Under the pieces are notes generated by a model. The model had not been told where the DNA came from. It saw only the letters and a list, made by a program, of their open reading frames with translations, and made no database searches. The translations under genes and the position numbers were made by a program. Positions 39,561 to 42,107 of a DNA stretch of 64,000 bases are shown here, piece after piece. Position 1 is the first letter of the stretch. Each line of letters begins with the position of its first letter. The DNA comes from Escherichia coli (GTDB lineage: Bacteria; Pseudomonadota; Gammaproteobacteria; Enterobacterales; Enterobacteriaceae), in the NCBI RefSeq assembly GCF_003334385.1, contig NZ_QOWN01000022.1. One strand, written 5' to 3'.

Positions 39561-39743
39561 TCATCGATCTTGTATCACTTTTTTGCCGGAAGTTGTTTGC
39601 ATTTTATTAGTTGGATAGGGTTTGTGGATTTTTGCTGGCTGACGGGCAAATAAAGTTTGTTTAATGGTTTGCTTATCTGCCAGTTGATTAATCACATGGC
39701 GGGCTATCTGACCGCCAGCACCAAGAATCAGTACATTTTTCAT
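39561..39743 (-). pseudogene. ymjC: N-terminal fragment of an NAD(P)-binding Rossmann protein
   Basis: 60-aa ORF beginning MKNVLILGAGGQIARHV (GxGxxG dinucleotide-binding motif) and ending abruptly; far too short for a complete Rossmann protein. Confidence 0.45.
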
Positions 39744-39813
39744 GAAAATTATCCCAGATTATTGGCAGCAATATGCCAGTCCATATCACTATTGCGGATT
39801 TGAATATGTTTCA

Positions 39814-40734
39814 TTACAGAGTTTCCTCAAAGAACGGAGCTAATACTGAAATTGCTTCAGCCACATAGGCTTTGCCGTCATAAAGATCCATATGGTTTGC
39901 GCCTTCAACAATGTGATAGCGTTTATCCTGGCTTGATGCTCGATCGTACAGGTCGTCACTCATCCATTTGCTCCCTGCCTGGCTGCCCGCCACAATCTGC
40001 GTCGGCTGAGTCAGGTACACTTCCGCCATATGGTAAGCATCATAGGTAATAATCTGGTTAAGGCTGCGCAAAGTAGCGTAACCCGGTGCTGTTGGATACT
40101 GCGCGCGAGGGGGGTGGTAATACTCCCAGGCCTGACGCAGTTCTTCGTTCGGCGCATCGGACTCCTTCATTGGTGCCAGTGGCATAATGGCGTATTCTCC
40201 GCTGCTAATATCGCTGGTTCTGGCGTTTGAACCCGCTTCAACGTATGGCAGGGCATCAATAGATTTCACATTGTTTTCCCAACCATTACGGAATATCGAA
40301 CCAATATTGACCGCACTAACGGTACCGATGGCCTTGATGCGGCGATCCTGAATTGCAGCATTGGCTGTATATCCTGCACCGGCACAAATTCCCATCGCAC
40401 CAATTCGGGTATTGTCGACATAAGAAAGCGTTGTCAGGTAATCAATCACGGCACTGATGTCTTCAGTACGAATGTATGGGTTTTCTAACTGACGCGGCTC
40501 GCCGCCACTTTCACCTTGATAAGATGCGTCATAAGCAATAGTGACAAATCCCTTTTCCGCCAGTTTTTTGGCATAGGTTCCGGCCGTTTGTTCTTTAACG
40601 CCCCCACCTGGGTGAGATAACACAATTGCCTGATACTGACGGGTTTCATCAAATTTTGGAGGGAAATAGATCACTGCAGACAAAGAGATGGTTGGATTAT
40701 TGCTGTTAGTGAAGCTGACTTTATTATTCATCAT
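39814..40734 (-). CDS. ycjY: alpha/beta-fold hydrolase (prolyl-oligopeptidase/dienelactone-hydrolase-like)
   Basis: Start chosen at MMNNKV with GAGGA SD upstream (306 aa); serine nucleophile elbow GICAG. Confidence 0.85.
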   Translation of the reverse strand: MMNNKVSFTNSNNPTISLSAVIYFPPKFDETRQYQAIVLSHPGGGVKEQTAGTYAKKLAEKGFVTIAYDASYQGESGGEPRQLENPYIRTEDISAVIDYLTTLSYVDNTRIGAMGICAGAGYTANAAIQDRRIKAIGTVSAVNIGSIFRNGWENNVKSIDALPYVEAGSNARTSDISSGEYAIMPLAPMKESDAPNEELRQAWEYYHPPRAQYPTAPGYATLRSLNQIITYDAYHMAEVYLTQPTQIVAGSQAGSKWMSDDLYDRASSQDKRYHIVEGANHMDLYDGKAYVAEAISVLAPFFEETL

Positions 40735-40871
40735 TCCGTTCCTCATGGAGTTGTCGGTTCGTTTTAACGGTTGGTGATATCACTATAGATATTGATCATT
40801 AAGTTGATTAGACCCAAAATCATGATTAGACCTATCATTTAAATGATTAATAGATTGCATGGAGATACTGA

Positions 40872-41771
40872 ATGAAGCGTGAAGAAATCGCTGATCTGAT
40901 GGCGTTTGTCGTCGTTGCAGAGGAGCGTAGCTTCACTCGTGCAGCAGCCCGCCTGAGCATGGCGCAGTCAGCTTTAAGCCAGATAGTGCGTCGTATAGAA
41001 GAACGATTGGGATTGCGGCTTCTGACGCGAACCACGCGCAGCGTTGTTCCAACTGAAGCGGGCGAGCATCTTTTGTCTGTTCTTGGCCCTATGTTGCATG
41101 ACATAGATTCAGCCATGGCATCCCTGAGCGATCTGCAGAACCGCCCATCCAGGACAATACGTATTACTACTGTAGAACATGCAGCAAAAACGATATTGTT
41201 ACCAGCAATGCGCACATTCCTGAAATCGCATCCTGAAATTGATATTCAGCTCACCATTGATTATGGTTTGACCGATGTCGTTTCTGAACGTTTTGATGCA
41301 GGCGTCCGTCTGGGTGGGGAGATGGATAAAGATATGATCGCCATTCGAATCGGGCCAGATATACCAATGGCTATTGTTGGCTCACCGGATTATTTTTCTC
41401 GCCGAAGTGTTCCAACGTCAGTGTCACAATTAATAGATCATCAGGCAATTAATTTGTATCTTCCCACATCGGGTACAGCAAATCGCTGGAGATTAATACG
41501 CGGTGGACGTGAAGTTCGTGTTCGCATGGAAGGTCAGCTTTTACTGAATACGATAGACCTGATCATTGATGCTGCAATTGATGGGCATGGATTGGCGTAT
41601 CTACCTTATGATCAGGTTGAGCGGGCTATTAAAGAAAAAAAACTGATACGTGTTTTGGATAAATTCACACCAGATTTACCCGGTTATCACCTGTACTATC
41701 CACACCGTCGACATGCTGGCTCGGCATTCTCATTATTTATAGATAGGCTGAAGTATAAAGGTGCTGTTTAG
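40872..41771 (+). CDS. pgrR: LysR-type transcriptional regulator
   Basis: 299 aa; N-terminal LysR HTH. Confidence 0.85.
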   Translation: MKREEIADLMAFVVVAEERSFTRAAARLSMAQSALSQIVRRIEERLGLRLLTRTTRSVVPTEAGEHLLSVLGPMLHDIDSAMASLSDLQNRPSRTIRITTVEHAAKTILLPAMRTFLKSHPEIDIQLTIDYGLTDVVSERFDAGVRLGGEMDKDMIAIRIGPDIPMAIVGSPDYFSRRSVPTSVSQLIDHQAINLYLPTSGTANRWRLIRGGREVRVRMEGQLLLNTIDLIIDAAIDGHGLAYLPYDQVERAIKEKKLIRVLDKFTPDLPGYHLYYPHRRHAGSAFSLFIDRLKYKGAV

Positions 41772-42107
41772 CACTACTTGCTGATACATTAATTTAATTC
41801 TTCTCTTAACGTATTCTCAGTTCCTTTCAACGTTTTGGTCATTTTTTATTCTTCGTACAATGGCGACAGATGCTGATTATGATACCGAAAACGGGTTTGA
41901 ACGTGCGAAGCCCGAACGTAGTGTTCGGAGTTCTATGTGCTTTACCGCATTTTGGAGACTATTATTTACACTAAATCTGATTTGATATATTGATACTTAA
42001 AACATTTGATGCTTCCTTTGTCACTTTTTTGATGGAAGTTGTTTGCATTTCTTTAAGGCGAAACAAATAATTACGCATCAATTTTAATGTCGGTTAGAGG
42101 GAAACTT

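Follow-up and report, generated by a model that had tools for sequence, protein, structure and literature searches.

The genes mpaA and mppA of Escherichia coli, which encode a murein tripeptide amidase and a murein tripeptide binding protein, are separated in the K-12-type gene order by a block that contains the alpha/beta hydrolase gene ycjY, the LysR-type regulator gene pgrR (ycjZ), and fragments of ymjC and queH (Table 1). We analyzed this locus in a 64,000-nucleotide stretch of E. coli DNA (contig NZ_QOWN01000022.1 of assembly GCF_003334385.1; hereafter, the window), for which a preliminary description had reported a near-identical direct repeat of 30 bp bracketing the block. Direct inspection of the sequence bears out this repeat: the two 30-mers are identical at 28 of 30 positions, both lie on the plus strand and are spaced by 2446 nucleotides, start to start; a search for such a pair in 100 dinucleotide-preserving shuffles of the window gave 0 matches. 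The distances to the flanking genes, previously put at about 100 and 60 bp, measure 95 bp from the mpaA ATG (39479, minus strand) to the start of copy 1 and 58 bp from the end of copy 2 to the mppA ATG (42109). When extended to 42 nt, the repeat shows only 83% identity, and its right end consists of K-12-specific junction sequence, so that the true repeat is 30 bp long (possibly up to 37 bp).

Searched against 5,426 complete E. coli genomes, the sample underlying all allele counts given below, the 42-nt repeat query had matches in 5,419 of them, with a per-genome median of two places, both at the mpaA-mppA locus. The pair is thus locus-specific, which rules out a dispersed intergenic repeat (REP, ERIC or IRU type) and settles the concern, raised with the first description of the repeat, that the 30-mer might be common genome-wide. 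A search against Rfam yielded two sub-threshold matches only, both within coding regions. Insertion of a transposon or insertion sequence (IS) with target-site duplication, which would likewise leave short direct repeats around the insert, was considered and rejected: such duplications are usually 2-14 bp long, compared with 30 bp here, no inverted-repeat pair was found at the insert ends (39605/42020), and the gene and open reading frame (ORF) listing of the block between the repeats includes no transposase.

The GC content between the repeats is 0.447 (window mean 0.507), compared to 0.549 in mpaA and 0.546 in ycjG on the left, and to 0.480 in mppA and 0.432 in ynaI on the right. The higher AT content noted previously for the enclosed genes therefore holds against the left flank and fails against the right one; given the low GC content of mppA and ynaI, the compositional contrast of the insert is real on the left only.

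Table 1. Features of the mpaA-mppA locus in the window
Feature	Position	Strand	Description
ycjG	37769-38776	+	Gene left of mpaA
mpaA	38751-39479	-	Murein tripeptide amidase; left chromosomal neighbor of the insert
B arm	39480-39574		mpaA-proximal half of the ancestral spacer; blocks GCAGTGTTGTGCAAA and ATCAAAT conserved in four genera
Repeat copy 1	39575-39604	+	TCACTTTTTTGCCGGAAGTTGTTTGCATTT; probable attL-type core (B-O-P' junction), with the mpaA-side chromosomal arm on the left and element DNA on the right
Overlap-equivalent, copy 1	39582-39588	+	TTTGCCG; carries both positions that differ between the copies
ymjC'	39605-39743	-	N-terminal remnant of a 212-aa SDR/NmrA-like gene; deletion junction 39605/39606
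ycjY	39814-40746	-	Alpha/beta hydrolase of the cassette; from gene calls and homologs
Divergent control region of the cassette	40747-40871		GATTAGACC repeats and ATGAT-N7-ATCAT dyad; conserved among cassette homologs
pgrR (ycjZ)	40872-41771	+	LysR-type regulator; homologs with 87-88% identity occur in numerous genera and also on plasmids
queH fragment	41869-41909	+	Epoxyqueuosine reductase; annotated as a pseudogene by the NCBI Prokaryotic Genome Annotation Pipeline (PGAP) in L002; 90% DNA match to plasmid queH
P arm	41936-42020	+	Truncated lambda-type P arm of attP, corresponding to lambda 27637-27721; H2-like IHF consensus kept, P1/P2 arm-type Int sites absent
Repeat copy 2	42021-42050	+	TCACTTTTTTGATGGAAGTTGTTTGCATTT; probable attR-type core (P-O-B' junction), with the element P arm on the left and the mppA-side chromosomal arm on the right
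Overlap-equivalent, copy 2	42028-42034	+	TTTGATG; the RM10410 satellite crossed over inside it
mppA promoter	42043-42071	+	Predicted sigma-70-like site, TTGCAT (in copy 2)-17 nt-AATAAT; consensus scan and cross-genus conservation
B' arm	42051-42108		mppA-proximal half of the ancestral spacer; conserved block GAAACAAATAATTAC
mppA	42109-43721	+	Murein tripeptide binding protein; right chromosomal neighbor of the insert

Comparison of the locus with other enterobacteria shows that the block was inserted between the two genes. In Citrobacter, Enterobacter, Klebsiella oxytoca, Cronobacter, Pantoea and Salmonella, six genera spanning two families, mppA and mpaA are adjacent and divergent, with a spacer of 156-249 bp, and the block is absent from this site. 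A single copy of the 30-mer, with 4-10 mismatches, is present in the spacers of Citrobacter (TCACTTTCTTGTCGGAAGTTAATTGCATTT), Salmonella, Enterobacter and Klebsiella; none was detected at up to 10 mismatches in those of Cronobacter and Pantoea. On the left side, colinearity of the E. coli sequence with the outgroup spacer extends from mpaA through the last base of the 30-mer and is lost after GCATTT; on the right side, it extends from the first base of the 30-mer through mppA. A spacer rebuilt from the two E. coli flanks and one copy is 95 + 30 + 58 = 183 bp long, compared to 184 bp in Citrobacter, and the two align end to end with 128 identities and 5 gap columns. Conservation of the 30-mer segment within this ancestral spacer is clear in Citrobacter and weaker in the other genera. 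Closer to mpaA, two blocks within 39510-39545, GCAGTGTTGTGCAAA and ATCAAAT, are conserved in Citrobacter, Enterobacter, Klebsiella and Salmonella; on the strand of mpaA, the latter yields TTGATA, which could serve as a -35 hexamer, with no promoter call and no known regulator.

Unoccupied sites also exist within E. coli, where a 545-nt query for the rebuilt junction matched without interruption in 173 of 5,426 genomes (175 with an 80-nt query). Together with the one-copy spacers of four other genera, these approximately 173 empty sites substantiate the earlier reading of the repeat as the footprint of a rearrangement that separated mpaA from mppA. Eight empty sites were read, of which four carry an AT core, three a CC core and one, in strain CE10, a TC..A core. 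The AT-type sites, in which the core of copy 2 is joined to the mpaA-side arm, are the signature of precise loss of the block; in one of these, CP131_Sichuan, the flanks are 100% identical to the window. The CE10 core (TCACTTTTTTGTCGGAAGTTGATTGCATTT) has the Citrobacter bases at the diagnostic positions, and no crossing of copy 1 with copy 2 could yield it, so that it is best read as an attB that has never been occupied; this junction was matched at ≥99% in five genomes. Strain MDR_56, which matches only as far as copy 1, does not represent an empty site: an IS421 insertion with an adjacent deletion (L022, 7311-8790) has eliminated the entire cassette together with copy 2 and the start of mppA (its 5' end). 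L024, selected as a possibly divergent Escherichia on account of its MpaA (90% identical), is an ordinary E. coli with 98% identity over 8 kb. One more of the loci compared, L021, comes from an error-prone assembly.

Evidence on the nature of the inserted element comes from the DNA adjoining copy 2. In a BLAST search of 2.3 Gb of phage genomes (INPHARED), positions 41936-42015 matched lambda 27637-27716, within the P arm of attP (76.3% identity over 80 nt, E = 7e-7), along with 21 related records. Aligned without gaps up to the edge of copy 2, 41936-42020 and lambda 27637-27721 are identical at 62 of 85 positions (73%), compared to the expected value of about 28 and a maximum of 46 in 100,000 shuffles, and no other register of the lambda fragment approaches this number. 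Continuing the same ungapped register, the annotated lambda core (27724-27738, GCTTTTTTATACTAA) corresponds to 42023-42037 (ACTTTTTTGATGGAA), with CTTTTTT in register, and the counterpart of the lambda overlap TTTATAC reads TTTGATG in copy 2 and TTTGCCG in copy 1, such that the only two differences between the copies both fall inside the 7-bp overlap-equivalent. The AAGTTG that follows the core, the C' core-type site, is the same in lambda and in copy 2 (an exact CAACTT on the bottom strand). A consensus scan located an H2-like site for the integration host factor (IHF) at 41983-41995, with one mismatch in the window and an exact match (TATCAATATATTA) in the allele of strain 210205630 (L002). 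The remnant begins just past the second arm-type Int site of lambda, that is, P1 and P2 are gone. The order of the arms, namely, chromosome arm, core and element at one end, and P arm, core and chromosome arm at the other, fits a single reciprocal exchange (B-O-P' ... P-O-B').

A scan of viral contigs with the P-arm sequence additionally identified strain RM10410, in which an 11-kb element (L036, 20050-31283) encoding an integrase, an Icd-like protein, a primase, a single-stranded DNA-binding protein (SSB) and a protease-capsid fusion is inserted inside copy 2. Both its junctions (TCACTTTTT/GGATG... and ...CTTC/TTTGATGGAAGTTG, the slash marking the junction) lie in TTTGATG, so that the crossover occurred within the predicted 7-bp overlap. 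This insertion at the mppA-side core, found in one complete genome, is a separate, recent event. The element resembles phage satellites of the phage-inducible chromosomal island (PICI) type; it used the same core as the decayed insert, with the distinction of its own 412-aa integrase, which is transcribed away from the junction. In the O121 strain RM8352 (L037, 2500-6551), the only further locus that was read, the same element resides in a prophage gene for the terminase large subunit, at CCAGTTTCTT/GGATG, and the annotation under the matches suggests a terminase-gene location in other Shiga toxin-producing E. coli strains as well. The integrase region of this element was detected in 83 genomes at ≥80% coverage; the protease part of the fusion is ClpP-like, and the capsid part is a major capsid protein.

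Taken together, these features make it likely that the 30-mers represent the attL and attR cores left by a decayed, integrated element of the lambda family. Where the preliminary description favored a generic insertion or deletion, the att-type cores and the lambda-type P arm beside copy 2 point instead to site-specific integration. Because int, xis, the P' arm and the P1/P2 sites no longer remain, we infer the involvement of an integrase, and its catalysis of the event, from the anatomy of the sites. Several observations weigh against this interpretation. No int or xis gene is annotated or present as an ORF in the K-12-type allele or in those of strains SCU-102 (L001), 210205630 and SCU-124 (L003), and the P1/P2 arm-type sites and the P' arm are absent from every allele examined. 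The left core-type site, TCACTTT, matches the CAGCTTT of lambda at only 4 of 7 positions, although the spacing is as in lambda. No sequenced phage with this core was found in INPHARED or IMG/VR. Heterology at 2 of 7 overlap positions normally inhibits lambda-type recombination, so that the CC/AT difference, which would reflect the host and element overlap sequences, may just as well have arisen by later mutation or stem from a polymorphism of attB. Finally, all Escherichia genomes compared were E. coli. Beside copy 1, where the P' arm would be expected, L001:1806-1899 shows only 22 of 95 identities to lambda P' and no phage match; a P'1-like motif at L001:1901 was dismissed as an arm site because it belongs to the cassette's own spacer downstream of the short-chain dehydrogenase/reductase (SDR) gene, which is conserved in Raoultella and Kluyvera.

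The best surviving alternative to integration by a lambda-family element, albeit an unlikely one, is an insertion that was not site-specific, by a staggered double-strand break with fill-in or a template switch during replication to a point 30 bp upstream, which would have produced a plain duplication with the P arm adjacent by chance. Such an origin would account for the missing integrase gene and P' arm, for the sharp boundaries of the repeat and for an identity of 30 bp that exceeds the 15-bp core of lambda. It would leave unexplained, however, that a homolog of the P arm adjoins copy 2 with precisely the register and orientation found in lambda, which is very unlikely by chance, that the copies differ solely inside the overlap-equivalent, and that these 7 bp also served as the crossover site of an unrelated element with an integrase; the lack of inverted terminal repeats at the insert ends also speaks against it.

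Much less probable is the alternative mentioned in the preliminary description, that the 30-mer is a shared cis-regulatory element, an operator for PgrR or another regulator, selected at both promoters for co-regulation of mpaA and mppA. The 30-mer does contain a T-N11-A motif and a dyad, ACTT-N9-AAGT, resembling the sites of LysR-type transcriptional regulators; some of its sequence is shared by the ancestral spacers of several genera; and its right end probably has a regulatory function. Specifically, a consensus scan detected a sigma-70-like site, TTGCAT-17-AATAAT, that spans the right end of the repeat and the adjacent downstream DNA, and conservation of both hexamer regions in Citrobacter, Enterobacter and Klebsiella suggests that copy 2 probably supplies the -35 hexamer of mppA; the same scan found no suitable -10 for the TTGCAT of copy 1. 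Given this probable -35 and the ancestral conservation, the argument initially offered against an operator, that 30 bp is long for one, is unsound. The case against the operator lies elsewhere. Two copies occur only together with the block, compared to one in Salmonella, Citrobacter, Enterobacter, Klebsiella and empty-site E. coli; the copies are oppositely oriented relative to mpaA and mppA; and the 30-mer sequence is older than PgrR at this locus. With respect to PgrR itself, a T-N11-A motif counts for little by itself, nothing ties the dyad to this regulator, and the 30-mer was rejected as its operator because genomic SELEX (systematic evolution of ligands by exponential enrichment) places the PgrR site in the ycjY/ycjZ spacer, the only one listed here, and not in the 30-mers (PMC5934670). 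Constitutive promoters have been listed for the same spacer (PMC3946193). This cassette control region, with its GATTAGACC repeats, is highly conserved among homologs and has nothing in common with the 30-mer, so that neither the SELEX lists nor sequence similarity lend support to a shared operator.

The reverse polarity, with block and repeats ancestral and lost through repeat recombination from other genera and from empty-site E. coli, is hardly credible: precise loss does occur, as the AT-type sites with the copy 2 core on the mpaA-side arm and the K-12-like flanks of CP131_Sichuan indicate, but the site is without the block in all six genera of two families, the cassette moves horizontally and is carried on plasmids elsewhere, the block contains a phage P arm, and the Citrobacter-like core of CE10 cannot be derived from the two copies.

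Under the integration scenario, a lambda-family element with a tyrosine integrase would have joined its attP to an attB located centrally in the ancestral 183-bp spacer between the divergent genes; about 30 bp would have been common to the phage and host sites, hence one copy now at each end of the insert. The element would then have decayed, losing int, xis and the P' arm and leaving a four-gene cassette, the queH fragment and 85 nt of the P arm, whereas mpaA and mppA would each have retained the promoter-proximal half of the spacer plus one core. The cassette would have arrived either as cargo of the element or later. The remnant resembles the lambda att system in the direct core repeats that flank the insert and the single core at unoccupied sites, in the P arm with its H2 consensus, and in the B-O-P' ... 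P-O-B' topology. It differs from lambda in the host site (the mpaA-mppA spacer rather than gal-bio), in the sequence of core and overlap (TTTGNNG rather than TTTATAC) and in the extent of phage-host identity (about 30 bp rather than 15). With P1/P2, the P' arm, int and xis missing, the site presumably can no longer be excised by its own system.

The chromosome of E. coli K-12 harbors several cryptic prophage remnants and islets, among them e14, Rac, DLP12 and elements of the CP4 type. The insert is similar to these in that phage functions have been deleted, passengers have been wired into host regulation, att-core repeats are present and strains are polymorphic; it is far smaller (2.4-4 kb) and includes no phage gene, the survivors being a metabolic cassette that is plasmid-borne elsewhere. 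To our knowledge, and in the literature searched, the mpaA-mppA insert is not annotated as a prophage remnant, and no attachment site at this locus has been described in that literature, a search that did not extend to the primary PgrR paper. The insert is probably an unannotated, highly reduced lambda-type element of the K-12 map and a new instance of a well-known kind. It accounts for a peculiarity of the K-12 gene order, in which unrelated genes and pseudogenes separate the linked murein-tripeptide genes mpaA and mppA. The locus also provides a new attB for which natural empty, occupied and re-occupied alleles are available.

The inserted genes derive from a horizontally mobile cassette that consists of an SDR gene (212 aa), two hydrolase genes (310 and 306 aa) and a divergent LysR gene. 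Homologs of PgrR with 87-88% identity are encoded in Klebsiella, Raoultella, Kluyvera, Citrobacter, Enterobacter and Salmonella and on plasmids, always within this four-gene unit, and the surroundings of the unit differ wholly between these contexts, both chromosomal and plasmid. The DNA homology (about 79%) is confined to the segment from the SDR stop region through the LysR stop codon, and none of the other contexts contains the 30-mer. Apart from Klebsiella plasmids, the cassette is found, at 69% identity, on plasmids of Agrobacterium and Rhizobium. At both ends of the insert, non-cassette DNA is present: the 249 bp between pgrR and copy 2 include the queH fragment, whose 37-aa translation had no NCBIfam match, whereas neither the 94 nt that adjoin copy 1 on its right nor the 97 nt downstream of pgrR produced an informative match on plasmids or phages. 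On a plasmid-like contig of Klebsiella variicola (L017), two paralogous LysR/hydrolase/NmrA-type modules lie side by side (4383-7930 and 8696-12606), the second including a flavin oxidoreductase of the old yellow enzyme (OYE) type, and are adjoined by TacAT toxin-antitoxin, SSB and ParB genes. The cassette operons of Raoultella and Kluyvera are longer, with adh_short and OYE genes, and in Kluyvera cryocrescens (L019, 8000-8602), a 200-aa phage-integrase fragment directly follows the cassette LysR gene in another genomic context, with no 30-mer-like sequence nearby.

Within E. coli, the inserted block is decaying. In SCU-102, the SDR gene is intact (212 aa), and strain 210205630 possesses, in addition to the intact SDR, the second alpha/beta hydrolase (310 aa, L002:2627-3559); both alleles contain both 30-mers, with copy 1 unchanged in the mpaA-SDR spacer. 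Compared to SCU-102, the window allele carries a 665-bp deletion (L001:1807-2471, with 1 nt of microhomology) that starts one base past copy 1; the deletion endpoint thus coincides with the core boundary. This is the point where copy 1 was reported to sit at the end of the ymjC fragment, and indeed, the K-12-type sequence leaves the long allele there. Of the 5,426 genomes, 2,901 retain the missing segment and only 1,272 have a full-length second hydrolase; the window has just a remnant of this hydrolase at about 39744-39813 (the ymjD region), between ymjC' and ycjY. Thus, both arrangements to which the preliminary description had directed attention exist: mpaA and mppA are adjacent, without the block at the junction, in six genera, and the SDR is full-length in 2,901 E. 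coli genomes. The truncation of ymjC is, accordingly, a separate, later deletion whose left end abuts copy 1, rather than part of the event that separated mpaA and mppA, as originally supposed: genomes with an intact SDR contain both repeats, which also excludes the K-12 deletion as the source of the repeat. Other rearrangements of the block include an internal deletion in SCU-124 (L003, 2112-2853) that fuses a truncated hydrolase to a truncated pgrR while both 30-mers are kept, copy 1 with a single substitution (GTATTT), and an ISVsa5 insertion in strain EC11.

The deletion has potential consequences for the regulation of mpaA. In the long allele, a strong terminator-like hairpin with an 11-bp stem and a T-rich tail (L001:1927-1951, minus strand) closely follows the stop codon of the SDR gene, where it separates the cassette operon from mpaA; it was lost from the window allele through the 665-bp deletion. 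This loss suggests that read-through from ycjY to mpaA is allele-specific. The reported ycjY-ymjD-ymjC-mpaA operon, and hence PgrR control over mpaA, probably originated with the deletion. The deletion junction (39601-39628, minus strand) also creates a sigma-70-like site, TCCACA-16-TAAAAT, that faces mpaA; with 7 such sites in the region compared to 6.3 expected, it is a weak candidate. On the other side of the insert, the putative -35 hexamer of mppA is preceded, at a distance of about 50 bp, by the phage-derived H2 consensus for IHF, which may have been co-opted for the control of mppA.

A broader proposition, which we consider possible but doubtful, is that the center of the mpaA-mppA spacer is a live att site for more than one kind of tyrosine recombinase and that the role of PgrR as a regulator of murein recycling is a historical accident. 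If so, a mobile hydrolase/SDR cassette with PgrR as its private regulator would have landed upstream of mpaA, mpaA would be under PgrR control only in the approximately 43% of strains in which the later deletion took out the terminator, and the P-arm remnant with its IHF site would now serve as the upstream control region of mppA.

The interest of the locus lies chiefly in the origin and strain-dependence of the control of peptidoglycan recycling by PgrR. PgrR and the hydrolase/SDR operon appear as acquired mobile passengers rather than original parts of murein recycling, and conclusions on recycling control drawn from K-12 may fail in the 2,901 of 5,426 genomes that have the intact SDR and the hairpin, as well as in other enterobacteria. 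The same polymorphism surfaces in a pan-genome association study, in which ymjC was over-represented among lactic-acid-resistant E. coli (PMC9602453); this presence/absence signal is the SDR deletion polymorphism, which tracks phylogroup.

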